From contig JBBTBX010000009.1 of assembly GCA_038043465.1 (NCBI GenBank), positions 34,710-98,709 on the forward strand: a stretch of 64,000 nt of DNA, written 5' to 3'. A program made the translations under genes and the position numbers. The notes under the pieces are model-generated. The model ran no database searches. It was not told where the DNA came from and worked only from the letters and a program-made list of their open reading frames with translations. Below, piece after piece: positions 15,634 to 61,794 of this stretch. This DNA comes from Pseudomonadota bacterium (GTDB lineage Bacteria > Pseudomonadota > Alphaproteobacteria > Rickettsiales > SXRF01). Each line of letters starts with the position of its first letter. Position 1 is the stretch's first letter.

Positions 15634-16365
15634 ATGCAAAATTACAATCTCAGCACAAGAAAAAAAGATGGTTTCACTCTGCTTGAATTATCAATAGCTA
15701 TAGTCATAATAGGTTTGGTTATTGGTGGCGTAATGGTTGGTAAATCATTAGTAAATGCGTCAGAAATACGCAGAAAGATCAACGACCTTAATATAATAAC
15801 GGCAGCTGTAAACACCTTTAAAACAAAATACAACTGCATTCCCGGTGATTGTAACAACACGACAAGTTTTTTAAGCAATATCAGCGGCAATGGCGATGGT
15901 GATGGGTGGATTGAGTGGTCATCAGAATCTATTTACGCAACACAATCACTATACTACGCTCAGCTTACACCTAAAAATACAACATCGGTTGGCAGCCCAT
16001 ATATTAATGCAAATAATGATGGTTTTGGCTATCTTTATTATCAGGACTTATATACCACTTACAGGCGCATGGGTGTTACCATTTCATGGTTTGGCAGTGG
16101 AGGTTTTACAAATAGTAACACTTGCGGTCAGATTAATACGCCTGCACTTACTCCAAATGACGCTATGGCAATTGATACTAAAATAGATGACGCGGTGCCA
16201 AATTCAGGGGGGTTCATTTCTCTTGATGGAAAAATAAAACAAAATCCAGACTGCCCAGCGCAAGCTACCGCACCAGCAAATTGCCGCAATGCAAGTAGCC
16301 CAAACCTATATCTAAACTCAGATGTTATAGGCTGTCGCACGGTTTATTATTTACCGGGGAACTGA
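15634..16365 (+). CDS. Prepilin-type N-terminal cleavage/methylation domain protein (pilin/pseudopilin-like)
   Basis: Leader ...KKDG|FTLLELSIAIVIIGLVIGG. It is a paralogue of 61015-61794: both share NTFxxKYNCxxGDC, GDGDG and IDxKIDD. Confidence 0.85.
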   Translation: MQNYNLSTRKKDGFTLLELSIAIVIIGLVIGGVMVGKSLVNASEIRRKINDLNIITAAVNTFKTKYNCIPGDCNNTTSFLSNISGNGDGDGWIEWSSESIYATQSLYYAQLTPKNTTSVGSPYINANNDGFGYLYYQDLYTTYRRMGVTISWFGSGGFTNSNTCGQINTPALTPNDAMAIDTKIDDAVPNSGGFISLDGKIKQNPDCPAQATAPANCRNASSPNLYLNSDVIGCRTVYYLPGN

Positions 16366-40242: not shown

Positions 40243-40635
40243 ATGGATAAAATCGTTGATGTTGAGATTGGCAAACGTATAAAGCTTCGTCGTACAGTGC
40301 TGGGCTTCAGTCAGGCATACACAGCAAATGCTCTTAATTTAACTTTTCAACAAGTGCAGAAATACGAAAAAGGTATTAATTCTCTTAGCTCTAACAAATT
40401 ATATAGTTTTGCTAGCTTGTTAAGAGTCCCGGTGTCCTACTTTTTCGAAGGATTAGGAAGTGGTAGTACTAAGATAACAGCTAAGTTTGACAAAGAAAAT
40501 TCATTCGGTTCCGACCGTGAAGCGCTGGAAGTTATGAAAGTCTTTAACAAAATAGAAAGTCCTTATTTGCGAAAGAAAATGATTGAACTGTTACATCTGT
40601 TAATCGATGATGATATTAAGAGTAGAGTAAACTAA
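40243..40635 (+). CDS. XRE-family HTH transcriptional regulator
   Basis: IGKRIKLRRTVLGFSQAYTANALNLTFQQVQKYEKGINSLSSNKLYSFASLLRVPVSYFFEG. Confidence 0.88.
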   Translation: MDKIVDVEIGKRIKLRRTVLGFSQAYTANALNLTFQQVQKYEKGINSLSSNKLYSFASLLRVPVSYFFEGLGSGSTKITAKFDKENSFGSDREALEVMKVFNKIESPYLRKKMIELLHLLIDDDIKSRVN

Positions 40636-40874: not shown

Positions 40875-40977
40875 CGCCGATAAATTAAATTATTTTTTTA
40901 TTTAACTTGATTTTATAATTTATAATTAAACATAATATAAATCTAAAGTTGTAGCAATATTAGCGTATATTATCTTG

Positions 40978-41748
40978 ATGATAGATTTTGTTAAATTTGT
41001 AACAGAAATGAACCGGGCAGAATGTGCAGAAGATGCATTTAATTATCTGGAAAAAACTTTATCAGATTTAGGTTTTGACAGGGTTGTTTACTCACTTATA
41101 ACCGACCACCCCAGTATGCAGTTAAAGCGTGGCCATGGTATTCTTAGAAACTATCCAGATGATTGGATGAAATATTATTTTGCAAAAAACTATTTTGAAG
41201 TAGACCCCGTAATCAAAGTTATTAAGCAGACCAGCGGTCCATTCCTATGGGAAAAGCTTCCGGAATTAAAAAACGGGTTACGGAAAGATGAAAACGTCCT
41301 GATGGAAGAAGCGCGAGAAGCCAAATTACTGGATGGGATAGGCATATCATTACATGGCGCACGCGGAGAAATCGTGGGAATGGGAATTGCCAGCAGCTCG
41401 GGAAGAACGGATATATTAAACCCGGATATGATCAGCATTGTATACGCGCTTTGTTCCCAATTTCATATAGTCTATAGAAAGATGAAAGAAAAATTACTGC
41501 CTATCATCCATCTTTCACAAAGGGAGCAGGAAGTCCTTACCTGGATTGCGGCAGGGAAAAGCAAAAGCGTAGTCGCCGATATATTGCAAATCAGCGATGA
41601 CAGCGTAAAAACCTACGTTAACAGGATTTTCACCAAATTAGAGGTGAATTCAATACAATTAGCCGTTGTAAAGGCTATTGCTATGGGGCTGATAACTCCA
41701 GATTTATGCCATAAAAATTCATCTTACCTGGAAACGTCACCCAACTAG
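40978..41748 (+). CDS. LuxR-family acyl-homoserine-lactone-responsive regulator
   Basis: Autoinducer-binding pattern (YPDDWMKYYFAKNYFEVDPV) and GerE-type HTH (LSQREQEVLTWIAAGKSKSVVADILQISDDSVKTYVNRIFTKLEV). Confidence 0.9.
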   Translation: MIDFVKFVTEMNRAECAEDAFNYLEKTLSDLGFDRVVYSLITDHPSMQLKRGHGILRNYPDDWMKYYFAKNYFEVDPVIKVIKQTSGPFLWEKLPELKNGLRKDENVLMEEAREAKLLDGIGISLHGARGEIVGMGIASSSGRTDILNPDMISIVYALCSQFHIVYRKMKEKLLPIIHLSQREQEVLTWIAAGKSKSVVADILQISDDSVKTYVNRIFTKLEVNSIQLAVVKAIAMGLITPDLCHKNSSYLETSPN

Positions 41749-41809: not shown

Positions 41810-42499
41810 ATGAACGTATATATTATTTCAATCGAAAACATGCATGAATACGGTGACATAATGCCTTCTATGCTCAGGCTGCGTCATAAGGAATTTAAAG
41901 AACGCCAGAGTTATAATATCCCTACCTTCAAAGATATGGAATATGATGCCTATGACACTCCGGCCACCGTATATGTGGTGTGGAGAGATGATGATGGAAT
42001 AGTACGTGGCTGCTCAAGGATGGCTCCAACTGACCGGGCATATATGATTCAAGATTTATGGCCGAATATAGTAACCAATATTCACCTGCCTAATAATGAT
42101 GACATCTGGGAATCTTCACGGTTTGCTATTGATAGCGATTTGCCAGCAGACATGCGTGCGCGGGTTAAATTGGAAATTCTGCAGGCTAAAATTGAATATG
42201 CTTTGGCTCTGGGGATAAAAGGAATGATAGGTGTTATGCCCCCACTCATCTGGAGAGCTGTATTTGTAAATTCTGGATGGCAAATTGATAATATTGGCCC
42301 AGTTACCACGTTAGCTAGTGGTGAAAAAATTGTAGCGGGCTGGATAAATGTTAATCCGACTATTCTTGATAATATCAGGAGCAAGACGGGTATTAGCAGC
42401 TCATTCTTAGAAAACTGCAACATACTTCAAAGAAAAATCGGGAAAGAAACACCCATTAGAAATATTAACTTTAGCAAAAAATTAGAAGGAGTAGCATAA
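41810..42499 (+). CDS. LuxI-family acyl-homoserine lactone synthase
   Basis: RLRHKEFKER...W...EYDAYD...RMAPT...WESSRFAI matches the conserved LuxI N-terminal residues. Confidence 0.88.
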   Translation: MNVYIISIENMHEYGDIMPSMLRLRHKEFKERQSYNIPTFKDMEYDAYDTPATVYVVWRDDDGIVRGCSRMAPTDRAYMIQDLWPNIVTNIHLPNNDDIWESSRFAIDSDLPADMRARVKLEILQAKIEYALALGIKGMIGVMPPLIWRAVFVNSGWQIDNIGPVTTLASGEKIVAGWINVNPTILDNIRSKTGISSSFLENCNILQRKIGKETPIRNINFSKKLEGVA

Positions 42500-50857: not shown

Positions 50858-51823
50858 TTACTCATTAAGGGAACGTAGATCTGCACGTGTGCCATATACT
50901 ACTAAATCGTCAAAAGCGGTTATTGTAGCCGGTTTCTGAACGAATGTTACAGAAAATGCGGTTGCTGCCCCACTGGAATCGCAATGGCAATTGGTAAGTT
51001 CAGCACTGTCGGCACTTATGTAATTTGCGAGTCTGGTGCTACTGCCGCCACGGTTATATCCGCCATGTCCGTTTTTGCCAAAACTCAGTAGCAAATAAAC
51101 TCCAGAAGTTGTTTTCGCCGCGCCGGTTGCATCATTTACCGTAATCCTGGCAGTTGAACTGTCGCTGACTGGAATATTAACTGCTCCGGATGCAGCAGTC
51201 ATATTAACATCCACCATATACATTATGCGTCTTCCCCAACCATCAATGGCATAATCATCCGGAAGCCCGAGAGTCTTAGTTGGAACCATTCCTCCTGCAA
51301 CGCTATAACGGCTTATGGTAATACCAGAATTAGTTGCGGTTGCTGGTTTATCAAGAGTAATCTGGGTTGAGCTGTCAATACTGGCAATATACGCACCAGC
51401 GGGAATGCCAGTGCCTGAAACCAGCGTTCCAACGGAAAGACCTGTTGTTGAGCTAACGCTGGTCACTATTGCTGAAGTATTGGTTGTATTACCGGTAAAA
51501 GTGCTGGCTGCCATTGAGAAATTCGCCGCTGGAGTCCCGCCTGTACAAGTCCCGTTATTTGCAGCCTCTATACCAAAATTATTGCTGGAAGTAGCATCCA
51601 TAAGCTGAGTCGCATCCGCTGGGCAGGGAATGCGGTTAAATGCCTGCCGGTAATCCAGCAAAGCCTTCTGAATGGCTGCCATCTTAACTTGTGTTTCTTT
51701 GATTTGCTTCAAATCAATCGAATGGTTGAAAAGCACCATCGCCCCACCCATGACTACAGAAATAATAACTAGGACAATGCTGAGTTCGAGGAGGGTGAAA
51801 GCTCTGTTGTTTAATTTCTGCAT
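50858..51823 (-). CDS. Prepilin-type N-terminal cleavage/methylation domain protein
   Basis: MQKLNNRA|FTLLELSIVLVIISVVMGG with GGAG SD. The track ORF extension to 51895 is a translated repeat (TPTTIITPTTPT). Confidence 0.85.
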   Translation of the reverse strand: MQKLNNRAFTLLELSIVLVIISVVMGGAMVLFNHSIDLKQIKETQVKMAAIQKALLDYRQAFNRIPCPADATQLMDATSSNNFGIEAANNGTCTGGTPAANFSMAASTFTGNTTNTSAIVTSVSSTTGLSVGTLVSGTGIPAGAYIASIDSSTQITLDKPATATNSGITISRYSVAGGMVPTKTLGLPDDYAIDGWGRRIMYMVDVNMTAASGAVNIPVSDSSTARITVNDATGAAKTTSGVYLLLSFGKNGHGGYNRGGSSTRLANYISADSAELTNCHCDSSGAATAFSVTFVQKPATITAFDDLVVYGTRADLRSLNE

Positions 51824-51836
51824 ATATAATCTCCAA

Positions 51837-51945
51837 GTGGGCGTGGTAGGCGTGATAATCGTGGTGGGCGTGGCGAAGTAATTTATCAATACCAATCATT
51901 TACGACTATCACGTCCATCACGCCTACCACGATAACCACGATTAT
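51837..51945. repeat. 9-nt-period tandem-repeat-armed element (CGTGGTAGG-like arms)
   Basis: A 15-nt perfect complement: CGTGGTAGGCGTGAT (51842-51856) pairs with ATCACGCCTACCACG (51917-51931). Lies between the lpdA stop and the pilin-like gene start. Confidence 0.85.
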
Positions 51946-51946
51946 A

Positions 51947-53350
51947 CTACATATGAACTACTTTACCAAACGCGTCCAGTGTCGATTCGTGCATCATTTC
52001 TGAAAGAGTCGGATGCGGGAAAATAGTGTGCATCAAATCAGCTTCGGTAAGCTCACCAGTTTTGGCGATAACATAACCCTGAATCATCTCGGTTACTTCC
52101 GCGCCGATCATATGCGCGCCGAGCAGCTCACCAGTTTTCGCATCAAATATGGTTTTTACTAACCCTTCTGGTTCGCCAAGTGCAATCGCCTTGCCATTAC
52201 CCATGAATTGAAAACGCCCGACTTTCACATTATAACCTTTTTCCTTAGCGGCTTTTTCAGTCAGCCCCACGCTTGCCACCTGTGGGTTGGCATAGGTGCA
52301 TCCTGGGATATTAGCGGTTTTCATCGGGTGTACATCTTTTACGCCCGCGATTTTTTCTACGCAGATTACGCCCTCATGGCTGGCTTTATGCGCAAGCCAC
52401 GGCGCGCCAGTTAAATCACCAATCGCATAAACATTCGGCTCGTCAGTTGCGCCCCATTGATTAGTTACGACATGAGTTTTTTCTACTTTAACCTTAGTGC
52501 CTTCAAAGCCAAGATTTTCCACATTACCGACAATGCCCACCGCCAGTATCACGCGGTCAACGGTGATTTCGCTGGATTTTCCACCAGCTTCGAGTGTGGC
52601 AGTCACATTATTTTTGCCTTTTTTCAGTGATTTCACAGTTGTTGTCGTGTGAATTTTCATGCCTTGTTTTTCAAAAGCTTTCTGCGCCAGTTTAGAAATT
52701 TCTTCATCCTCTACTGGAAGAATTCTATCCATAACCTCAACTACTGTTACTTCTGCTCCCAGCGTGCGATAAAAACTTGCAAACTCGATGCCAATAGCAC
52801 CGCTTCCCACCACCAATAATGATTTTGGCATTATGTCTGGCAGCATGGCTTCCCGATATGTCCATACCAGCTTGCCGTCTGGCTCAAGATTTGGCAAAGC
52901 CCGCGCCCGCGCGCCAGTTGCCAGAATCACATTTTTATAAGATATTTCGCTGATTTTTTTGCCGTCTTTCTCCACGGAAACCTTGCCTTTGCCAGCTAGT
53001 TTTCCGTAACCATCAATAACGGTTATTTTATTTTTTTTCATAAGTCCAGAAACGCCTTTGGAAAGCTGCCCAGAAACCGCGCGCGAACGGGCAACAATTT
53101 TTGCCAGATCAAATTTTATGTCTTTAGCACTTAAACCAAAAGCATCGAGATTGTGTAACAAATGATAAATTTCGCTGGAACGCAGCAAAGCCTTGGTTGG
53201 AATACAGCCCCAATTCAGACAGATTCCGCCCATGTGGTTAGCTTCCACCAACGCGGTTTTAATGCCTAGTTGCGCTGCACGAATTGCCGCCACATACCCA
53301 CCAGGCCCACCACCAATAACCACAAGATCAAAACTCTGCTGTTCCGTCAT
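51947..53350 (-). CDS. lpdA: Dihydrolipoyl dehydrogenase (E3)
   Basis: GGGPGGY FAD motif, redox-active CLNWGCIPTK and C-terminal HPTLSE. Confidence 0.98.
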   Translation of the reverse strand: MTEQQSFDLVVIGGGPGGYVAAIRAAQLGIKTALVEANHMGGICLNWGCIPTKALLRSSEIYHLLHNLDAFGLSAKDIKFDLAKIVARSRAVSGQLSKGVSGLMKKNKITVIDGYGKLAGKGKVSVEKDGKKISEISYKNVILATGARARALPNLEPDGKLVWTYREAMLPDIMPKSLLVVGSGAIGIEFASFYRTLGAEVTVVEVMDRILPVEDEEISKLAQKAFEKQGMKIHTTTTVKSLKKGKNNVTATLEAGGKSSEITVDRVILAVGIVGNVENLGFEGTKVKVEKTHVVTNQWGATDEPNVYAIGDLTGAPWLAHKASHEGVICVEKIAGVKDVHPMKTANIPGCTYANPQVASVGLTEKAAKEKGYNVKVGRFQFMGNGKAIALGEPEGLVKTIFDAKTGELLGAHMIGAEVTEMIQGYVIAKTGELTEADLMHTIFPHPTLSEMMHESTLDAFGKVVHM

Positions 53351-53377
53351 ATTTTTTCCTTTTTTATTTTTTGTATT

Positions 53378-53680
53378 TTATTTAGCTTTGAACCCGCGCA
53401 CCAGCCAGCACCCTACTGGAAATAATGCCAGCAGTAAAATGGGCGGTAATAACACCATGCCAATACGTTTCATTTGCAATTCTTCTTTATCTTTGCCGTC
53501 ACTCTGGGAAATGCCATTTTCGTCAATACGCAACTCAGAATCTTTAGACAAAGAAATGGTTATGCCATTCTTTTCAACTTTATTAGCTTCCTGATACTGA
53601 TACCAGCCCATTCCACCTATCCATAACACGCTGATAAGCACCCAAACTCGTAACAACCCACGCCCAATATTTTTACTCAT
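53378..53680 (-). CDS. Hypothetical 2-TM membrane protein
   Basis: 100-aa ORF with hydrophobic N- and C-terminal segments. Co-oriented inside the PDH cluster. Confidence 0.5.
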   Translation of the reverse strand: MSKNIGRGLLRVWVLISVLWIGGMGWYQYQEANKVEKNGITISLSKDSELRIDENGISQSDGKDKEELQMKRIGMVLLPPILLLALFPVGCWLVRGFKAK

Positions 53681-53690
53681 AATAAACCTA

Positions 53691-54179
53691 CTATCTTATG
53701 TTTTGTGGCATGGGAACAGCGGAAGAATGATGATCAACAATCATCCATTTTTTCCCCTGCAACTGATAAGTAAACGAAAAACGCGCAGGCACAGCCACCT
53801 CCTCGCCTTCCTGCGTATAGCTCAAAGTATATTTTCCAGTATTTACCGCCATATCTCCAAACCTGCGCGGATGCTCTTCTTCTATTTCCACACGCACATC
53901 AGGATTAGAAACCACTTTTTTATAATATCCCGTCAATGCTTTATTAGTGGTAAGCGGATTTTGCACAAAAGTGGAAATCATTATCGCGTTTTTATCATAT
54001 AAAGCAGCAATTGCCTCAACATCACGCCCTTCTACCGCGCTTTTCCAATCCTGAATCGCAGAGCCAACATCCGGTGCTCCAGCCTTCAACATCGTAGGAG
54101 CAAGCTCACGGGCGGAGGCTGTGAAAGAGCAAGATAAAACTGCGAACAATAACACCCAAAAATTAAATTTCTGTTTCAT
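53691..54179 (-). CDS. Secreted NTF2-like (SgcJ/EcaC / DUF4440-type) protein
   Basis: Signal peptide. WKSAVEGRDVEAIAALYDKNAIM...KWMIVDHHSS pattern. Confidence 0.65.
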   Translation of the reverse strand: MKQKFNFWVLLFAVLSCSFTASARELAPTMLKAGAPDVGSAIQDWKSAVEGRDVEAIAALYDKNAIMISTFVQNPLTTNKALTGYYKKVVSNPDVRVEIEEEHPRRFGDMAVNTGKYTLSYTQEGEEVAVPARFSFTYQLQGKKWMIVDHHSSAVPMPQNIR

Positions 54180-54513
54180 ATTTTTCCTTTAATATTTTTC
54201 TTGCAACATCAACTAAATCTGGCAAGCTTTCATTAATTATTTGCCAAACTTCTTCATATTCTAAATCACCCAGATAATCATGCACCAAAACATTACGAAA
54301 GGACTTTACAGTTGCCCAAGGAATTTGTGTATATTCTAATCTTGTCTCTTCCTTTAAATTACTAGCAGATTCAGTTATATTCGCCAAAACTTTAATAGTT
54401 GCATTTTGAAGCAAATGACTTTTAAGAAAATCCTCTTTTCCAAAGGCAATATACTCTTTGATATACTCATAAGATTCTATAATATGTTGCAAATAAAGTC
54501 TTTCATCTTTCAT
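54163..54513 (-). CDS. hepT: HepT-like (DUF86/HEPN) toxin, pair 1
   Basis: R-x4-H-x-Y motif in FRNVLVHDYLG. 4-nt overlap with the upstream MNT. Confidence 0.88.
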   Translation of the reverse strand: MKDERLYLQHIIESYEYIKEYIAFGKEDFLKSHLLQNATIKVLANITESASNLKEETRLEYTQIPWATVKSFRNVLVHDYLGDLEYEEVWQIINESLPDLVDVARKILKEKYETEI

Positions 54514-54803
54514 ATAGGTTTTGCCTCTTTAAGGACAGCATCTTTAATTACCCAATGTAAAGTTGGTTCGACCACGAAATCTATTTTACGGTGGAACATT
54601 TCCTCCAAGGCAGCTGGGAAACCATAAGTTGCCAGCCCCATATTTACACCTTTAATCCTGTTCACCAAAATATCAATATCACTATCCACTCGCTCCTGCC
54701 CTCGCGCTACCGAGCCAAACACCCGCACATCCGTAAGCCCACATTCCGTGGCAAGTGCCAGAATTTTCTCTCGGTTTTTGCGTAATTCGTTAAGGAGTGT
54801 CAT
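54510..54803 (-). CDS. mntA: MNT-type minimal nucleotidyltransferase antitoxin, pair 1
   Basis: VFGSVARGQERVDSDIDILV (GS...DxD). Confidence 0.88.
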   Translation of the reverse strand: MTLLNELRKNREKILALATECGLTDVRVFGSVARGQERVDSDIDILVNRIKGVNMGLATYGFPAALEEMFHRKIDFVVEPTLHWVIKDAVLKEAKPI

Positions 54804-54846
54804 GGTTTTTATCTCTTAAGATCCCCGCTTTTGCGAGTAATTGAAA

Positions 54847-56115
54847 TTACAACAACATCAGGCTTGGGCTTTCGATATAATGTTTCAGGGCTTGCAAGAA
54901 CTGTGCGCCGACTGCACCGTCTACCACACGGTGATCCACTGATAATGTTAAATCTACGATATTGCGGATTTCTATTTTACCATGGCGTACCACTGCCCGT
55001 TCTTCACCTGCACCAACGGCAAGAATACAGCCTTGTGGCGGGTTTACAATCGCCGCAAATTGCTTAACACCGAACATGCCGAGGTTGGAAATGCTGAAAC
55101 CACCGCCCTGGAATTCCTCAGGCGCAAGCTTGCCAGTTTTAGCGCGAGCAGCGAGGTCTTTCATTTCGTTTGAAATAGTCACCACGCTTTTTTGGTCAGC
55201 ATTTTTTACAATCGGAGTAATAAGCCCACCATCAATCGCCACCGCTACCGAAATATCCACATTGTTATATTGCAAAGTAGCTTCATCGCTCCATGAAGCA
55301 TTGGCGGTTGGAACTTTTTTCAGTGCCAGAGCAGTTGCCTTAATGATAAAATCATTCACAGAAAGTTTGTAAGCTGGTTTTTTGTCTTTGCCTGCCACCG
55401 CTTCCGCATCAAAATTAATTTCCTTGCGAACTTCCAGAAGCCTGTCCAATTCACAATCAATGGTGAGATAGAAATGCGGCACAGTCTGCTTAGATTCCGT
55501 CAGACGGCGGGCAATTACTTTACGCATATTGTTATTAGGGATTTTGGTGAATTCAGTTGGGTTACGCAGCACCCTGCCCTTGCCACCAGTTCCGCCAGAA
55601 GCGACGGCTTTCAGCACATCATCTTTTACAATGCGGCCATGCGGCCCTGTGCCAGCCACCATCCGCAAATCAATTGATTCGTTAGAGGCGACGCGCTTGG
55701 CAAGCGGGCTTGCCTTCAGGCGATCCCCTGATGAGAGAGCAGGATTCTGGATTCTGGATTCAGAGGTAGAAACAGAAACAGTTTCAGGTTTTTTTTCTTC
55801 TTTCTTCCCTGAATCCTGACTTCCGACACTTGAACCCTTAGCTTTATAGCCATCCAAGACTTTCTTATCTTCACCATCTTCAAGCAGCAGGGCGATAAGC
55901 TCATTTACTTTCACGCCCTCCGTGCCAGAAGCAACCATGATTTTTCCAACGATACCCTCGTCAACCGCCTCGACTTCCATAGTCGCCTTATCGGTTTCAA
56001 TCTCAGCAATAACCTGACCTGACTTTATCTTATCACCTTCTTTTACTGTCCATTTGGCAAGGTTACCCTCAGTCATGGTTGGCGAAAGCGCAGGCATTAA
56101 AATTTCAATTGGCAT
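54847..56115 (-). CDS. pdhC: Pyruvate dehydrogenase E2, dihydrolipoamide acetyltransferase
   Basis: Lipoyl domain ([13 protein letters not shown]), E3-binding domain (ASPLAKRVA) and catalytic DHRVVDGA. Confidence 0.97.
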
Positions 56116-56449
56116 CTTTCAGTTCTTCCTTAATTTTAATTATTTGTTCTTTTAGCAAAGGTATATCTTTTTCGCAAGCACTCCAAACTTCTTTCATATC
56201 CACTTCAAAATACCCGTGAATTAGCATGTTTCTCATATCAACAATTTGCCGCCATGGCACATCACTATGTCGTATTTTCAGTTCTTTAGAAACATTATTA
56301 GCCGCTTCTCCGATAACTTCCATTGCCCTTACTATTGCAAGTTCAGTTATAAAATCCCTATTACCACAAAGCAAAATTTTTTCTACAATTACAATATAAT
56401 CGAGTACATGATCTATATATACGATATCATATAATTCACTTTTTTTCAT
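56105..56449 (-). CDS. hepT: HepT-like (DUF86/HEPN) toxin, pair 2
   Basis: [11 protein letters not shown] motif. Its stop lies 11 nt inside pdhC. Confidence 0.88.
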
Positions 56450-56733
56450 AAAGGCACTAAATCGCGGAAAATAGATTCACGAACCAGAGGATGCCTTATG
56501 TTATTTGGCTTGAATAAATCAATTTTTTTCCCTATAGCATCTTCCAATTCCGCTTTTAAAGATGCGAAACCAAAAAATGTCCCATTAAAGTTATCTATTA
56601 GCAAGTCAATATCAGAATTTTCATTTTCATCGCCGCGTGCAATTGAGCCAAACACCTTTATCTCGCGCACACCATACTGGGAAGCTATTTTTATAATTTC
56701 AGGTTTTTTGGCACGGAGTTCAGAGAGATTCAT
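56446..56733 (-). CDS. mntA: MNT-type nucleotidyltransferase antitoxin, pair 2
   Basis: VFGSIARGDENENSDIDLLI. Confidence 0.88.
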   Translation of the reverse strand: MNLSELRAKKPEIIKIASQYGVREIKVFGSIARGDENENSDIDLLIDNFNGTFFGFASLKAELEDAIGKKIDLFKPNNIRHPLVRESIFRDLVPL

Positions 56734-56736
56734 AAT

Positions 56737-57183
56737 TCAATCTTGACCACCCATAGCATTTAAACAATTACCATTTTTATAGCTGCTACCATTTACCGAT
56801 ACGTTAAATTTTTGCTGGGTCAGGAATTCGGCAAATTTTATTGCCTCATCAGAATTTCCAACTTGATAATTAACACCTCCGTTCATTTGATAATTCTGGA
56901 CGTTATTATTGTAATTATTGTTAATATTATAACTCATCGACTGCAATTCAAATTTCTTCATCTCCTGTTTTTTAGCATAATCATAAATAGATTGCATTTT
57001 TTCATCATATTTAGTTTTCGCCTGCACAAAATTTTCTGCGGCTAAGTTAAAGCTTATAGAAACACTAACCTGTTCCTGCAAACCACACTTTGACGGAACG
57101 ATACTAGATATCACTTTGTCAGCCAAAACAGGTGTTGAAAAAAATATGCCAATAATAAATGCTAAAATATATTTAAGCTTCAT
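56737..57183 (-). CDS. Hypothetical secreted Asn-rich protein
   Basis: Signal peptide MKLKYILAFIIGIFFSTPVLA from ATG 57183. The track ORF over-extends to 57228. Confidence 0.55.
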   Translation of the reverse strand: MKLKYILAFIIGIFFSTPVLADKVISSIVPSKCGLQEQVSVSISFNLAAENFVQAKTKYDEKMQSIYDYAKKQEMKKFELQSMSYNINNNYNNNVQNYQMNGGVNYQVGNSDEAIKFAEFLTQQKFNVSVNGSSYKNGNCLNAMGGQD

Positions 57184-57535
57184 AATAATCATCTCCTGTA
57201 AGTGTTTTATAAAGAAGTAATAACTCAATTTTTAATGTTGGCAAATCATCAGTTATTATTTTTCCAATTCTCTGCAAATTTATTTCTTCATACTCATGGC
57301 TTAATATATTCCGAATTCCAATGATTTTTTGCCATGGTATATGCTGGTTTTTTTGTTTCACATCATCGCCTATTCGTTTACAGGCTTCCCCAAGTACCGT
57401 AAAAGCACGAAGCACGGCATGTCCCACCATTTCATCATGCAAATCACCACGTTGCATAAACTTCTCAATATGCCCAATTTCAAAAAGCATATCCCAAATA
57501 TATACATCTGGATTTTTAATATTATTTTTACTCAT
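57173..57535 (-). CDS. hepT: HepT-like (DUF86/HEPN) toxin, pair 3
   Basis: IRNILSHEYEE motif. Confidence 0.88.
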   Translation of the reverse strand: MSKNNIKNPDVYIWDMLFEIGHIEKFMQRGDLHDEMVGHAVLRAFTVLGEACKRIGDDVKQKNQHIPWQKIIGIRNILSHEYEEINLQRIGKIITDDLPTLKIELLLLYKTLTGDDYYEA

Positions 57536-57819
57536 AATGGAACAGCACCATCAAGCATGTAACGCTTACGAAGCGGGTTTCTAACAATGTCTATTTCCAC
57601 CATATCAACCTTAGTATGAAGCAAATTCTCAACCTTATTTTTAAACTCTAAAAATTCAAAAATAGAGCCATCTTTCATTTTTATCATAAGATCAATATCA
57701 GAATTATCGCCCTCATCACCACGTGCAACTGAGCCAAAAACACGAATATCACTCACACCGTATTCATCAGCAATTTTTATAATTTCAGGTTTTTTAGTAC
57801 GAAGCTCAGCCAGATTCAT
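57532..57819 (-). CDS. mntA: MNT-type nucleotidyltransferase antitoxin, pair 3
   Basis: VFGSVARGDEGDNSDIDLMI. The start MNLAELR at 57819 is chosen by analogy with pair 2. The ORF is open to 57825. Confidence 0.86.
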   Translation of the reverse strand: MNLAELRTKKPEIIKIADEYGVSDIRVFGSVARGDEGDNSDIDLMIKMKDGSIFEFLEFKNKVENLLHTKVDMVEIDIVRNPLRKRYMLDGAVPL

Positions 57820-57837
57820 AATCAAACCTCCAAAATT

Positions 57838-58824
57838 TTAAATTTCACGCGCGCAAACTTCTTTTACCGCCTCAATGATGTGGCTGGCTTGCGGCAGTGC
57901 AAGTTTTTCAAGATTTGCCGCATAAGGAAGCGGGACATCAACACCCGCCACACGTTTTACTGGCGCATCAAGATAATCAAAAGCATGCTCCATAATCACC
58001 GCTGCTATTTCCGAGCCAATGCCTGCTGCCGGCCATCCCTCTTCCACACTTACACAACGGCTGGTTTTCTTAACCGATTCGATTATGGTTTCAGTGTCCA
58101 GCGGGCGGATGGTTCGCAGGTCAATAACCTCTGCCGATATACCTTCCTGTGCCAACGCCTCCGCAGCTTCCAAAGCTTTTCCCACCATAATGGAAAATGC
58201 AACAATGGTAACATCCGTGCCTTCACGCACCACGGCGGCTTTACCAATTTCCAGCGTAATATCGTCACCTTCAGGAACATCAAAATTCTGCCCATAGAGC
58301 ATTTCATTTTCTAGGAATATAACAGGATTTGGATCGCGGATTGCCGCTTTGAGCAAAGCTTTTGCCGATGCTGCGTCCCACGGTGCAACTACTTTAAGAC
58401 CCGGAATATGTGCGTACCAACTAGCGTAGCACTGTGAATGTTGCGCGCCTACCCGTGATGCTGCGCCGTTTGGCCCACGAAACACAATCGGACAACGAAT
58501 CTGCCCACCCGACATATAGTTGGTTTTTGCCGCCGAATTAATTATATGATCCATCGCCTGCATGGCAAAATTGAAAGTCATGAATTCAACAACCGGTTTC
58601 AACCCCATCATGGCAGCACCAACACCAAGACCAGCGAATCCATGCTCGGTTATCGGCGTGTCAACCACCCGCCGCGCTCCAAACTCCGCAAGCAAGCCCT
58701 CAGTTACTTTATACGCCCCCTGATACTCGGCAACTTCCTCGCCCATCACGAAAACTTCTTTATCACGGCGCATTTCTTCCGCCATCGCATCACGAAGCGC
58801 TACTCTTACTGTCTGCTGTCCCAT
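57838..58824 (-). CDS. pdhB: Pyruvate dehydrogenase E1 beta subunit
   Basis: [18 protein letters not shown] start with GAGG SD. The track ORF GTG extension to 58857 is unsupported. Confidence 0.96.
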
Positions 58825-58843
58825 ATATTTTTCCTCTCGTATT

Positions 58844-59227
58844 TTACCATACCGCACGTTTGTAATGTTTCAAAATTTTTTCATCGCCAGTTACCAATTT
58901 TCCTTTGCGCAGTGTAGCTTCTGCAACTATCAGGCGATCAAAAGTGTCTCTTGTCCAACCTATTTTAATAGCCTCTCTGCAAACATCCGCAAAATTACTT
59001 CGCGATTCTGCTATCTCTATTTTTCCTCGCAAAACATCCAGAAAATGCTCCGCATCATAACGGGTTTTGCCTATCTCATAAAGATAACCCAACTCCAAAC
59101 AGACCATTGGAGAATACAAAACTTCGTTTTCAAGAATAGTTTTTTTAGCTACGGAACTAAGTTTTTTAAAATTTCCCTTAACCAACCACAATATAATATT
59201 GGTATCAATGAAAATAGCATCATTCAT
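58844..59227 (-). CDS. vapC: PIN-domain toxin VapC
   Basis: FIDTN...E...[11 protein letters not shown] acidic residues. ATG 59227 gives an 8-nt overlap with the antitoxin stop (alternative ATG at 59236). Confidence 0.85.
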
Positions 59228-59498
59228 ATTTGCCATCACGATTCCATGGTCCAATCAAGCTCTCCCAATCGATTGAACGGTAAAACTCAGAATCCTCCAC
59301 CAAGCAATCTTTTAATGGCACTATTTTTGAAAAATCATTGATGATTTTTTTCTTCTTTTTTGCAGATTTTTTAGGTGGAGTAATAGTGATAAGCTGTTTA
59401 TTTCTACGCACTGAAACAGGCTCACCAGTGCGGATTACTTCATCAATAATCGCATAGATATTGCTGCGTAGCTCAGTAACTGTAATCTCATTTTTCAT
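59220..59498 (-). CDS. Phd/YefM-type antitoxin
   Basis: ITVTELRSNIYAIIDEVIRTGEPVSVRR N-terminal fold pattern. Lies upstream of vapC. Confidence 0.75.
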   Translation of the reverse strand: MKNEITVTELRSNIYAIIDEVIRTGEPVSVRRNKQLITITPPKKSAKKKKKIINDFSKIVPLKDCLVEDSEFYRSIDWESLIGPWNRDGKYE

Positions 59499-59511
59499 AT
59501 AACTACCATAT

Positions 59512-59526
59512 CACGTACGTACGTAC
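59512..59526. promoter_or_regulatory. (ACGT)n palindrome upstream of the phd/vapC pair, a candidate operator
   Basis: cacgtacgtacgtac lies 14-28 nt upstream of ATG 59498. Confidence 0.3.
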
Positions 59527-59529
59527 CTG

Positions 59530-59691
59530 TCAATTGTCAGAGCTACGATTAGAATCTTGCGTTTTTTCATTTTTTAATTTACTCCAGCAACCGGAAAAAT
59601 AATCAGAAACATTAGAGGTGTCTTTCTCCTCAATACCGCACCAGCAGCCGCTGAGAAATACCAAGACAACAAGGGGAAAGGTTATTTTCAT
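59530..59691 (-). CDS. Small lipoprotein
   Basis: MKITFPLVVLVFLSGC lipobox. The ATG at 59691 lies 2 nt after the pdhA stop. Confidence 0.5.
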   Translation of the reverse strand: MKITFPLVVLVFLSGCWCGIEEKDTSNVSDYFSGCWSKLKNEKTQDSNRSSDN

Positions 59692-59693
59692 AA

Positions 59694-60704
59694 CTAAACC
59701 AAAACATCCGTCCATAATTCCGATTCAGGAGGCACTGGGGATTTCTGGGCAAAATCGGCGGCTTCTGCTACAATTGCTTTTATTTCCTTATCGATTTCTT
59801 TCAGAGAATCTTCACTGGCATATTTGTCTTTAATCAGGCGCGTTTTCAAACCTTCAATCGGGTCGTGGTGCTCCTTGTAATCTTCGACTTCTTCTTTGCT
59901 GCGATATTTTGCCGGATCAGACATTGAATGACCACGATAGCGGTAGGTTTTCATTTCAAGCAGGAATGGACCTTTGCCGGCGCGAACATGTGCAACTGCT
60001 TCCTGACCAGCTTCACGCACTGCTACCACATCCATACCATTAACCTGCCTGCCAATAATACCAAAACCTTCGCCACGTTTATAAAGCTCAGTAGTGGCGT
60101 GGCTGCGTTTGGTGGAAGTACCCATCGCATATTCGTTATTCTCAATAATGTAAATTACTGGCAGTTTCCACAGGCTTGCCATGTTGAACGCTTCATAAAC
60201 CTGCCCTTGATTGACCGAACCATCACCAAAATATACGAGGCTCAAATTTCCATTCTCGCGGTATTTATGAGCGAAAGCTATGCCCGTTCCCAGCGGCACT
60301 TGCGCGCCAACGATTCCATGCCCGCCATAAAAATGCTTCTCGGTGGAGAACATGTGCATCGAGCCACCCTTGCCTTTGGAAAAACCATCAATGCGGCCAG
60401 TAAGCTCCGCCATAATTCCTTTCGGATCCATACCGCAAGCGAGCATATGACCATGATCGCGGTAGCTGGTTATCACCGCATCATTTGGGGTGATGCAGCT
60501 TTGCATGCCAACCACCACTGCTTCCTGCCCGATATATAAATGGCAGAAACCGCCGATAAGCCCCATACCATAAAGCTGACCAGCTTTTTCTTCAAAGCGG
60601 CGAATCATCAACATTTCACGATATAAGGAAAGCAGGAGTTCTTTAGATACTGGTTTGTTCACGCTGCTTATTTCACTCACCACTGTTTTTGCCGCTTTAG
60701 ACAT
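59694..60704 (-). CDS. pdhA: Pyruvate dehydrogenase E1 alpha subunit
   Basis: TPP motif GDGSVNQG...NN(E)YAMGT and RFEEKAGQLYGMGLIGGFCHLYIGQEA. Confidence 0.97.
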   Translation of the reverse strand: MSKAAKTVVSEISSVNKPVSKELLLSLYREMLMIRRFEEKAGQLYGMGLIGGFCHLYIGQEAVVVGMQSCITPNDAVITSYRDHGHMLACGMDPKGIMAELTGRIDGFSKGKGGSMHMFSTEKHFYGGHGIVGAQVPLGTGIAFAHKYRENGNLSLVYFGDGSVNQGQVYEAFNMASLWKLPVIYIIENNEYAMGTSTKRSHATTELYKRGEGFGIIGRQVNGMDVVAVREAGQEAVAHVRAGKGPFLLEMKTYRYRGHSMSDPAKYRSKEEVEDYKEHHDPIEGLKTRLIKDKYASEDSLKEIDKEIKAIVAEAADFAQKSPVPPESELWTDVLV

Positions 60705-60850
60705 GAAAACTCCAAAAAATATAATATGAATTATATATGATAATAAACCGGTATAAAGCAGAAAAACAACCTGTTTTGCAAGAGTTTAATCAAGATTTTT
60801 GTGCTGCACTGCAATATGGATGAGGGGTAATTGGATGATTAGATAACTGA

Positions 60851-60907: not shown

Positions 60908-60962
60908 AATTATTTCAGTTTATGTCCTAAATACTTATGCCAAAAAATCTACTGAATAACTT

Positions 60963-60999
<37 letters not shown>

Positions 61000-61014
61000 A
61001 ATTCCGAATTTTCC

Positions 61015-61794
61015 ATGCCTAATATTAGGGGGTTTACTCTAATTGAACTGTCCATAACCTTAGTTATCATAGGGCTAATTATCGGTGCCATTCTAGTCGG
61101 ACAGAATATGATTAATAGTGCCAGACTACGCTCAGTAGCGTCAGAACTGGTAAATTTTGAAACTGCAACAAACACTTTTATGTTAAAATATAATTGCTTG
61201 TCTGGCGATTGCTCCAACGCCACCCAATTCTTTGGAGTTAATAGCAATGGTTGCCCTGATGGCAATAGCTACACAGGCACATGCGATGGTGACGGCGATG
61301 GCTTCATAGGTACTGGTGATGGATGGAATGACTTTGAAGGCAATGAATGGTATCGTTATTGGCAACAACTAGCACAAGCAGGATTAATTTCCGGAATATT
61401 TACCGGCATGTCTGAAGCTGGGTCTTGTGGTGGTAAATGCGTAAGCACCCTTAATGCAAATGTTCCAACATCAAAAGCCTTTGTTAGTGGCGGATATTCT
61501 GGATGGATTGAAGATCCCGCAGGGGCAGTTGATTATTTTAACACTACGCATAAAAAAGATATTTATATCTTTGGCGCAGCAACTTCTAATTATATATCAA
61601 ACACCCCTATAATATCACCAGCTGATGTTTACTACATTGATGCTAAAATTGATGATGGACTGGTTATATCAGGTAAAGTTACGACTGATAGATCATCTTC
61701 CTGCCCGACGAGCAATGATAATGTTACAGCAAAATATGATCTAGCAAGCAGCAGCCTGTCTTGTATCTTGATATACCGCCCTGATCTTCAGTAA
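61015..61794 (+). CDS. Prepilin-type N-terminal cleavage/methylation domain protein
   Basis: Canonical short leader MPNIRG|FTLIELSITLVIIGLIIG from ATG 61015. The ORF is also open from ATG 60937, through the (AG)14 tract. Confidence 0.8.
   Translation: MPNIRGFTLIELSITLVIIGLIIGAILVGQNMINSARLRSVASELVNFETATNTFMLKYNCLSGDCSNATQFFGVNSNGCPDGNSYTGTCDGDGDGFIGTGDGWNDFEGNEWYRYWQQLAQAGLISGIFTGMSEAGSCGGKCVSTLNANVPTSKAFVSGGYSGWIEDPAGAVDYFNTTHKKDIYIFGAATSNYISNTPIISPADVYYIDAKIDDGLVISGKVTTDRSSSCPTSNDNVTAKYDLASSSLSCILIYRPDLQ

Follow-up and report, generated by a model that had tools for sequence, protein, structure and literature searches.

Why should an operon that encodes an essential complex of central metabolism carry toxin genes at its internal junctions, and what keeps them there? 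The question is raised by a 64,000-nucleotide (nt) stretch of DNA from an uncultured bacterium assigned to the Rickettsiales (assembly GCA_038043465.1, contig JBBTBX010000009.1, positions 34,710 to 98,709; hereafter the window, in whose own numbering positions are given), in which the pyruvate dehydrogenase (PDH) genes are interleaved with four toxin-antitoxin (TA) modules. One of these is a Phd/VapC pair, and the other three are pairs of an MntA-type nucleotidyltransferase (MNT) and a HepT toxin, here called types T1, T2, and T3. The answer that we favor, with moderate confidence, is that they are junction-specific resident TA cassettes that are probably co-transcribed with the pdh genes and that change hands by homologous recombination in the conserved pdh sequences on either side.

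The pdh operon and its toxin-antitoxin modules

Open reading frame (ORF) calls and Pfam searches delineated 16 co-oriented minus-strand genes running from position 60704 down to 51947, in the order pdhA, lipoprotein, phd, vapC, pdhB, MNT1, HepT1, SIMPL, MNT2, HepT2, pdhC, MNT3, HepT3, DUF4440, a two-transmembrane (2-TM) protein, and lpdA (Table 1). This upheld the gene order and gene identities proposed in an initial annotation of the locus, which had rightly ended the series with lpdA, although its coordinates stopped short of that gene (51947-53350); the product that it had called an Asn-rich secreted protein can now be identified as a SIMPL/DUF541 protein (26.3 bits). All four subunit genes, pdhA-pdhB-pdhC-lpdA, are intact and co-oriented (Pfam E values of 1e-47 to 1e-107), and their products resemble those of relatives (73-96% identity for PdhB and 54-89% for PdhC). 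With ORF starts picked by comparison with relatives, the intergenic gaps are, in operon order, 2, 31, 19, 18, 3, 43, 10, and 27 nt and the overlaps 8, 4, 11, 4, 11, 4, and 17 nt; the tight packing noted earlier, with gaps of at most 43 nt or overlaps throughout, is thus real. So is the AT richness of the TA genes, previously judged by eye: their GC content is 0.29-0.37, except for MNT3 (0.45), against 0.46-0.50 for the pdh genes.

Profile searches placed three of the proposed families above the Pfam gathering score, namely, NTP_transf_2/Polbeta (three proteins at 39-49 bits), HepT-like (three at 70-80 bits, the lowest being 69.5), and PIN (41.8 bits against a cutoff of 23.6, covering profile positions 1-116 of 120), but the fourth fell short: the match of Phd to PhdYeFM_antitox is confined to residues 4-35 and scores 23.8 bits against a cutoff of 29.8, and no NCBIfam model matched this protein. 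The position and size of Phd, its 8-nt overlap with vapC, and its co-conservation with VapC all support counting it as the putative antitoxin. Type VII HepT/MntA systems are defined by a GSX10DXD motif in the MNT and an RX4HXY motif in HepT, whose tyrosine MntA AMPylates using ATP (PMC7641770). Both motifs had been noted at the outset, and we found the former in all three window MNTs and nine orthologs and the latter in all three window HepTs; the catalytic motifs are unbroken in the 12 MNT/HepT pairs examined. All eight TA ORFs of the window are full length with intact catalytic motifs, and each MNT precedes its HepT with a 4-nt ATGA overlap (3/3 pairs). The three pairs, although they lie within 3.7 kb, are mutually divergent (35-50% identity among the MNTs and 21-29% among the HepTs), which rules out recent tandem duplication of a single pair. 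Only the 5' ends of MNT1 and MNT2 are alike (72% nucleotide identity over 173 nt).

Expression signals at the junctions

Terminator-like sites were at chance level (9 found versus 8.7 expected in shuffles), and none lies at any minus-strand junction, in agreement with the initial annotation. A consensus scan detected no promoter-like site within ~110 nt upstream of the MNT1, MNT2, or MNT3 start, and such sites were near chance overall (29 found versus 24.4 expected), although scans of this kind are weak evidence either way, especially for alphaproteobacteria. The spacing upstream of the three MNT genes is 3-43 nt. A T1 or T2 cassette contains only its two ORFs: the MNT gene starts 3-18 nt past the previous stop codon, with the Shine-Dalgarno sequence in or just past the preceding gene (e.g., the GGAGG of MNT1, within the 18 nt that separate it from pdhB). 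Across the whole window, no match to an Rfam family attained the gathering score. Because the three MntA/HepT pairs have no room for a promoter, no nearby promoter-like site, and no terminator, they are most likely transcribed from the pdh promoter, for which there is a candidate just upstream of pdhA (Table 1).

The earlier proposal that all of the TA genes are co-transcribed with the pdh genes is thus strongly favored for the MNT/HepT pairs but has to be qualified for Phd/VapC, which has a candidate promoter of its own. This promoter occupies the 31-nt gap before phd and is near consensus (TTGACA-17-TATGGT). Its spacer contains an (ACGT)n palindrome, a candidate operator (GTACGTACGTAC); the hexamers and the palindrome are both kept upstream of phd in the related loci L182, L185, and L089, that is, in four lineages including the window. 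Because a near-consensus promoter of its own is conserved in three other lineages, Phd/VapC is probably not purely a passenger and fits an ordinary autoregulated type II module. As no terminator follows it, its transcripts should run on into pdhB.

The cassettes also appear to be entangled with their neighbors in translation. The frame of the pdhC-adjacent HepT has no stop codon of its own: it continues across the start of pdhC as far as the TGA in ATGCCAATTGA (pdhC codons 3-4), an overlap of 11 nt that gives the toxins their conserved C termini (...LTGTDYHAN in T1 and ...DAN in T2). The AGGAA Shine-Dalgarno sequence of pdhC sits within HepT, and the HepT/pdhC overlap is conserved among relatives. 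A similar overlap, of 17 nt, joins HepT3 to the DUF4440 start. HepT1 of the window, which is followed by SIMPL, keeps the exact 3' end that its relatives have at the pdhC junction (ACAGGAGATGATTATTATG); the ATG contained there now opens SIMPL, again with an 11-nt overlap, and the HepT1 cassette has thus evidently moved from a pdhC-adjacent setting. From this arrangement we infer that translation of the next gene would start from signals lying inside the toxin gene.

Junction-specific subfamilies in related genomes

The layout is not confined to one genome but is a conserved trait of a clade: at least 13 lineages labeled Rickettsiales or Alphaproteobacteria, reached through homolog searches of a collection of 5.8 billion proteins, hold TA modules in the pdh operon. 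The PdhB proteins of these lineages are between 98% and ~75-78% identical to that of the window. The closest homologs of HepT1, HepT2, HepT3, and VapC with readable context (15 relatives' loci) all lie at the same pdh junction. (i) HepT2-type toxins fall off sharply after seven clusters at ≥59% identity, and all three loci with context (L089, L090, and L093) place them in the pdhB-pdhC interval. (ii) HepT1-type toxins form only ten clusters at ≥54% identity. Eight relatives' loci provide context; the T1 pair lies directly upstream of pdhC in seven of them (L174, L176/L183 [UBA6149], L178, L180, L181, L184, and L185) and between pdhB and SIMPL, like in the window, in the eighth (L202). (iii) VapC-type toxins form 8 clusters at ≥54% identity, and the Phd-PIN pair is directly upstream of pdhB in 5/5 relatives' loci (L089, L182, L185, L200/L201, and L202), where Phd orthologs with 72-95% identity occupy the same place. 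(iv) MNT3/HepT3 orthologs follow pdhC in L001, L182, and L201. As a control, the same scan recovered 14 generic HepT loci from other phyla, and none had a pdh gene within 6 kb. Each junction has its own TA subfamily, so far met at no other site: VapC before pdhB, T1 and T2 before pdhC, and T3 after pdhC.

The pdhA-pdhB interval of relatives also accommodates other TA pairs, namely, an MNT with a weakly matching NTase_sub_bind/HEPN-like partner in L089, L090, and L176 and a ParE-like pair in L176. The same HepT2 protein is encoded on 13 contigs; in the six places shown, drawn from different samples in NCBI, Logan, ENA, and JGI assemblies, the layout is the same over the part covered. An identical PdhB is encoded on nine contigs, of which three places were shown.

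Native and inserted genes

Comparison with the nearest TA-poor loci separates the accessory genes of this operon into two layers. L001, whose PdhB is 96% identical to that of the window, has the order pdhA, lipoprotein, pdhB, SIMPL, pdhC, a small Zn-ribbon/Pmp3-like ORF, MNT3/HepT3, DUF4440, 2-TM, and lpdA; its DNA aligns collinearly with that of the window, and it is devoid of VapBC, T1, and T2. In three sister lineages (L002, L003, and L005), the pdh operon is free of TA genes and retains the lipoprotein, SIMPL, DUF4440, and 2-TM genes. Because of the gene content of these four loci, the latter genes can be read as native, older clade-conserved accessory genes outside the TA insertions, and the TA pairs as additions. 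Secondary insertion, which the base composition had first suggested, is borne out: only the third pair occurs in L001, MNT2/HepT2 is missing from L182 as a clean indel, and L002, L003, and L005 are TA free. Four exported or membrane proteins (lipoprotein, SIMPL, DUF4440, and 2-TM) thus reside inside the PDH operon even in TA-free lineages, odd companions for a cytoplasmic complex.

The premise that the pdh genes of alphaproteobacteria are normally adjacent proved half true. In 150 other alphaproteobacterial pdh loci, we counted 124 co-oriented inserted ORFs (DUF5076, GNAT, SIMPL, SnoaL, SLOG, and others), HepT being encountered once (in L001) and no other TA family appearing in the 25 most frequent of the 41 families. 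Accessory genes in the pdh operon are therefore common, and TA modules are rare outside one clade. The proportion of 1 of 80 from a PdhB genome scan holds among the matches listed, which include neither L182 nor L185, and is not a clade frequency; a PdhB metagenome scan, in which the relatives among the matches listed have ≤81% identity, serves as background only. Other genes at relatives' pdh junctions include a GIY-YIG nuclease in two TA-free sister lineages (L003:7541-7843 and L005:7558-7848), a 23S_rRNA_IVP four-helix-bundle protein (L006:7592-8002), and the Zn-ribbon/Pmp3-like membrane protein mentioned above (L001:10736-10972).

Selection, loss, and recombination

For the Phd, VapC, MNT, and HepT orthologs, the ratio of nonsynonymous to synonymous divergence (dN/dS) is 0.09-0.25 at a dS of ~1-2, compared with 0.02-0.08 for the pdh genes; these ratios are approximate, given that dS is near saturation. 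They indicate that the TA cassettes are under purifying selection and are not decaying remnants. Loss nevertheless occurs. L182 has ~90% DNA identity to the window, with T2 gone as a clean indel and HepT3 inactivated by an internal deletion of ~180 nt that makes a stop codon; a lone MNT fragment remains at the T3 site of L180, and a 32-amino-acid (aa) VapC remnant is found in L174.

The most telling result concerns a single cassette. MNT1-HepT1 is 100% identical at the nucleotide level (dS = 0) in the window, L182, and L202, whereas in the same comparisons dS is 0.21-0.25 for pdhB (L182 and L202) and, against L182, 0.56 for pdhC, 0.68 for pdhA, and 1.7 for SIMPL. The tract without mismatches spans ~58000-57200 against L182 and 57800-57200 against L202 and stops sharply at the HepT1/SIMPL boundary, where mismatches leap to ~30 per 100 nt. 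The TA tree is, moreover, incongruent with the pdh trees: identity to the window is 69% for the T1 pair and 65% for PdhC in L176 and 61% and 87%, respectively, in L180. Taken together, the dS = 0 tract and the tree incongruence indicate that lineages probably trade cassettes with one another, with homologous recombination proceeding through the conserved pdh genes. Within this cassette, the L182 locus (L182:2608-2969; metagenome-assembled genome [MAG] SF1_2_7) has a 1-nt frameshift that splits HepT1 in DNA otherwise identical to that of the window; at ~2.5x coverage, this is either inactivation or a sequencing error.

Mobility like that of integrons or transposons can be ruled out for the window: a repeat search of 53300-60800 returned only short, chance-like inverted repeats, none of them flanking a cassette, and no attC sites, and the window has no integrase or transposase gene. 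Two strain variants of the window's species carry an extra insert of ~1.5 kb between pdhC and MNT3 (L083:5302-6834 and L084:2067-3599, corresponding to ~54804-54846 of the window) with a 93-aa BrnT-like and a 107-aa CopG-like ORF (weak Pfam matches) and a 305-aa Mrr-type restriction endonuclease (strong matches to Mrr_N and to Mrr_cat, the latter at 120 bits). The pdhC-MNT3 junction therefore also takes up a defense gene.

Interpretation of the locus

We interpret the pdh operon of this clade as a long-standing harbor with one or two TA cassettes per pdh interval. The cassettes would ride on pdh transcription and, by homology, MntA would neutralize the HepT RNase by AMPylating the tyrosine of RX4HXY. 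Their retention would come from addiction and from entanglement with the translation signals of essential neighbors, and they would be repeatedly reseeded by homologous recombination via the highly conserved pdh flanks. Because of addiction and entanglement, they would be hard to lose; because of recombination, they could return after a loss and sweep. The host may also benefit, through phage defense or stress arrest.

Several observations weigh against this interpretation. In a nonmobile element, addiction by itself hardly accounts for catalytic motifs that stay intact even though dS is saturated, and intact toxins over such deep divergence point to some selected function, presumably beyond that of selfish cassettes. 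The more distant T1 copies (L176 and L178) show no recombination tract: in sliding windows, pdhB and pdhC identity near the cassette is no higher than in TA-free controls. A search for a vehicle of the T1 cassette gave no match in viral contigs or PLSDB plasmids. Matches to the MntA and HepT equivalog models of NCBIfam reach 32-44 bits, short of the cutoff of 60, so that equivalence to the characterized pair is putative. The survey of lineages was opportunistic: it went where the homolog searches led and does not cover the clade exhaustively. Finally, co-transcription and translational coupling are both read from the sequence alone.

There is perhaps a modest chance that the MntA/HepT pairs, and perhaps VapBC, are instead domesticated regulators that tie growth to PDH expression or to the energy state. 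Two routes are conceivable: freshly made HepT could stay active when ATP is too low for AMPylation, or the RNases could process the polycistronic pdh mRNA and set the E1:E2:E3 ratio. Purifying selection on toxin and antitoxin alike over deep divergence, subfamilies known only from these junctions, and the conserved HepT/pdhC overlap with its embedded Shine-Dalgarno sequence would suit such a role, as would the ATP that the characterized MntA spends on AMPylating HepT (PMC7641770). However, close relatives do without the modules (L001 has only T3; L182 has no T2 and a dead HepT3; L002, L003, and L005 are without any), HepT types that share only 29% identity occupy the same site, the dS = 0 tract resembles the spread of a cassette and not vertical co-adaptation, and no RNA target or cleavage site is known. 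Rather doubtful in our estimate is a more specific proposal, in which the T1, T2, and T3 MntA/HepT pairs and one VapBC lineage would have been captured as a fixed, translationally coupled metabolic switch of the pdh operon: TA output would follow pdh transcription, AMPylation would read the energy state, and the RNases would arrest growth or reshape the pdh mRNA when flux collapses.

It is also quite unlikely that the pdh junctions are primarily a small defense island in which abortive-infection RNases are held at a constitutive level by the pdh promoter and turned over under pressure from phages. All three MNTs match the PADLOC candidate family PDC-S09 (E value of ~1e-25), the insert of L083 and L084 combines a BrnT-like/CopG-like pair with an Mrr endonuclease, and GIY-YIG, Uma2, DUF559, or 23S_rRNA_IVP genes occur at relatives' pdh junctions; an allele-like switch from T1 to T2 and the conflict between the trees would suit diversifying or frequency-dependent selection. 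PDC-S09, however, is a candidate single-gene system only, HepT, Phd, and VapC gave no PADLOC match beyond noise, the window contains no phage-sensing component or other canonical defense system, and nothing ties these subfamilies to phage resistance.

Very improbable, next, is that each TA pair is an insulated transcription unit with promoters hidden in the upstream coding sequence, the pdh genes being transcribed piecewise and the interleaving being physical only. Phd/VapC does have a conserved candidate promoter, the 3' end of vapC contains a promoter-like site ahead of pdhB (58873-58846), and consensus scans leave latitude either way; on the other side stand the empty stretches before the MNT starts, the near-chance total of promoter-like sites, the junctions devoid of terminators, and overlaps of 4-17 nt and gaps of 3-18 nt that leave no space. 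We give practically no credence to a chimeric metagenome assembly or a set of decaying, functionless ORFs: the source is a MAG, and degraded copies exist elsewhere (HepT3 of L182, the MNT fragment of L180, and the vapC remnant of L174), but assembly artifact is rejected by the recurrence of the same order in contigs from four independent sources (NCBI, Logan, ENA, and JGI assemblies of different samples) and decay is countered by eight full-length TA ORFs with intact motifs and dN/dS values far below 1.

Comparison with known systems

The component families, type VII HepT/MntA and type II VapBC, are known. With type VII HepT/MntA systems (class I, PF01909/PF01934), the pairs described here share the order of MNT before HEPN, GSX10DXD, and RX4HXY with the tyrosine that is AMPylated. 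They differ in having no promoter space and no terminator, in being set between the genes of an essential operon, in a toxin ORF that ends inside the next gene, and in the presence of three divergent pairs within 3.7 kb; their scores with the equivalog models are below cutoff. Phd/VapC resembles type II VapBC modules with a Phd/YefM antitoxin in the 8-nt antitoxin/PIN overlap, the candidate sigma-70-like promoter of its own, and the spacer palindrome expected for autoregulation. It differs in lying between pdhA and pdhB without a terminator, where it should take read-through from pdhA and feed pdhB, in belonging to a subfamily found so far only at the pdhB junction, and in the subthreshold Pfam match of its Phd.

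Three other settings bear comparison. The TA cassettes of Vibrio chromosomal (super)integrons are promoter poor and partly dependent on external promoters and are thought to resist deletion of neighboring DNA. The pdh cassettes are likewise promoter-poor TA cassettes in a co-oriented array, but they have no integrase and no attC-like repeat, their neighbors are essential core genes, and they appear to move by homologous recombination. In Escherichia coli relA-mazEF, a housekeeping gene is followed by a TA module and shares part of its transcription with it, as we infer here; that locus has a single module at the end of the unit, whereas the pdh operon has four modules between cistrons, with overlapping translation signals and positions conserved in many lineages. 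Recombination hot spots carry accessory cargo at fixed positions between core genes. The pdh junctions share with them variable cargo at fixed positions, clean presence/absence polymorphism, and mosaic identity tracts, but they are inside a single operon, where cargo can bring neither promoters nor terminators and has to provide the ribosome-binding site of the next gene.

Features of the operon and its surroundings

Table 1. Genes and candidate promoters of the pdh operon in the window, listed in the direction of transcription
Feature	Coordinates	Strand	Evidence and remarks
Candidate operon promoter, TTTATA-16-TATAAT	60730..60757	-	Consensus scan, 10/12 matches; ~25 nt upstream of pdhA ATG; consensus match only
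pdhA, pyruvate dehydrogenase E1 alpha, 336 aa	59694..60704	-	Pfam E1_dh, E = 6e-107
Small lipoprotein, 53 aa, clade-conserved accessory	59530..59691	-	Lipobox LSGC; no Pfam family; homologs in same place in L001-L005, L174, L185, L200
Candidate Phd/VapC promoter, TTGACA-17-TATGGT with TG	59505..59533	-	Consensus scan and conservation; spacer palindrome GTACGTACGTACGT, candidate operator
Phd-like antitoxin, 92 aa	59220..59498	-	PhdYeFM_antitox 23.8 bits, below cutoff of 29.8; 8-nt overlap with PIN gene
VapC, PIN domain toxin, 127 aa	58844..59227	-	Pfam PIN 41.8 bits; length from ATG at 59227, earlier starts possible up to 59254
pdhB, E1 beta, 328 aa, without N-terminal lipoyl domain	57838..58824	-	Pfam Transket_pyr, Transketolase_C; start set by alignment to relatives
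MNT1, MntA-type nucleotidyltransferase antitoxin, type T1	57532..57819	-	Pfam Polbeta/NTP_transf_2; GSX10DXD
HepT1, HEPN RNase toxin, type T1	57173..57535	-	Pfam HepT-like 74 bits; RNILSHEY
SIMPL/DUF541 secreted protein, 148 aa, clade-conserved accessory	56737..57183	-	Pfam SIMPL 26.3 bits; homologs in pdhB-pdhC interval of L001-L006
MNT2, MntA-type antitoxin, type T2	56446..56733	-	Pfam; GSX10DXD; orthologs with 67-84% identity in L089, L090, L093
HepT2 toxin, type T2	56105..56449	-	Pfam HepT-like 80 bits; RNMLIHGY
pdhC, E2 dihydrolipoamide acetyltransferase, 422 aa	54847..56115	-	Pfam Biotin_lipoyl, E3_binding, 2-oxoacid_dh
MNT3, MntA-type antitoxin, type T3	54510..54803	-	Pfam; orthologs in L001 (65%), L201 (82%), L182 (97%)
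HepT3 toxin, type T3	54163..54513	-	Pfam HepT-like 69.5 bits; RNVLVHDY
DUF4440/SnoaL-like protein, signal peptide, 162 aa, clade-conserved accessory	53691..54179	-	Pfam DUF4440, SnoaL_3; in L001-L005, L174, L180, L185, L201
2-TM protein, 100 aa, clade-conserved accessory	53378..53680	-	No Pfam family; homologs in L001, L003, L174, L185, L201
lpdA, E3 dihydrolipoamide dehydrogenase, 467 aa	51947..53350	-	Pfam Pyr_redox_2, Pyr_redox_dim; part of operon, outside the coordinates of the initial annotation

No terminator-like hairpin was found at the end of the operon after lpdA. The lpdA stop codon is followed by a run of CGTGGT/CGTGAT-like repeats (TAATCGTGGTTATCGTGGTAGGCGTGATGGACGTGATAGTCG; 51850-51960, minus strand), of which the minus strand would encode a His-rich peptide.

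Elsewhere in the 64-kb window we found genes for ribosomal proteins and housekeeping functions and a LuxR/LuxI pair, and no further TA family. A genome-wide scatter of TA genes was thus rejected as the cause of the cluster, although a ParD/ParE pair lies just beyond the window. This pair (L081:1517-2075, beyond the high end) marks a second TA site, downstream of a gyrB/parE-like gene that flanks the pdh operon; the corresponding site has ParD/ParE in L200 (L200:2651-3212) and RelB/YafQ in L180 (L180:1102-1628). The LuxR-type regulator (Autoind_bind plus GerE; 40975-41748, plus strand) adjoins a LuxI-type synthase (41810-42499, plus strand), with an HTH_3 protein just upstream (40243-40635), forming an acyl-homoserine-lactone quorum-sensing pair in a lineage labeled Rickettsiales; the largest contigs of relatives are ~1.4-1.5 Mb. 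Three proteins have a prepilin-type N-terminal motif (FTL[IL]ELSI...; 60937-61794, plus strand; 50858-51895, minus strand; 15634-16365, plus strand). The first two of these, which have weak N_methyl matches only, flank the pdh operon on both sides, and the gene at 60937 opens with a (GA)n-encoded ERERERERE run.

Significance

In a limited collection of papers, full-text searching turned up no account of a pdh operon with TA modules in it. What appears to be new is the setting: four modules between the cistrons of an essential operon, junction-specific subfamilies in many lineages, toxin genes that stop inside the next gene, and signs of exchange through core flanks. For the annotation of genomes, it is a caution that the junctions of essential operons can be hot spots of selfish or defense genes and not inert spacers.

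The locus bears on why bacteria keep chromosomal TA modules and how these persist without a mobile vehicle. It amounts to a repeated natural experiment in which apparently promoterless TA cassettes have been placed between essential cistrons with their stop codons and ribosome-binding sites intertwined. It combines conservation with turnover, positions being held in at least 13 lineages and one cassette being identical to the nucleotide despite diverged flanks. With its 9 kb, the locus is a defined target on which to test addiction, entanglement, spread by recombination, and host benefit one by one. Should the metabolic-switch proposal, doubtful as we consider it, turn out to be true, it would give chromosomal TA modules a physiological role that is under selection and tied into central metabolism.

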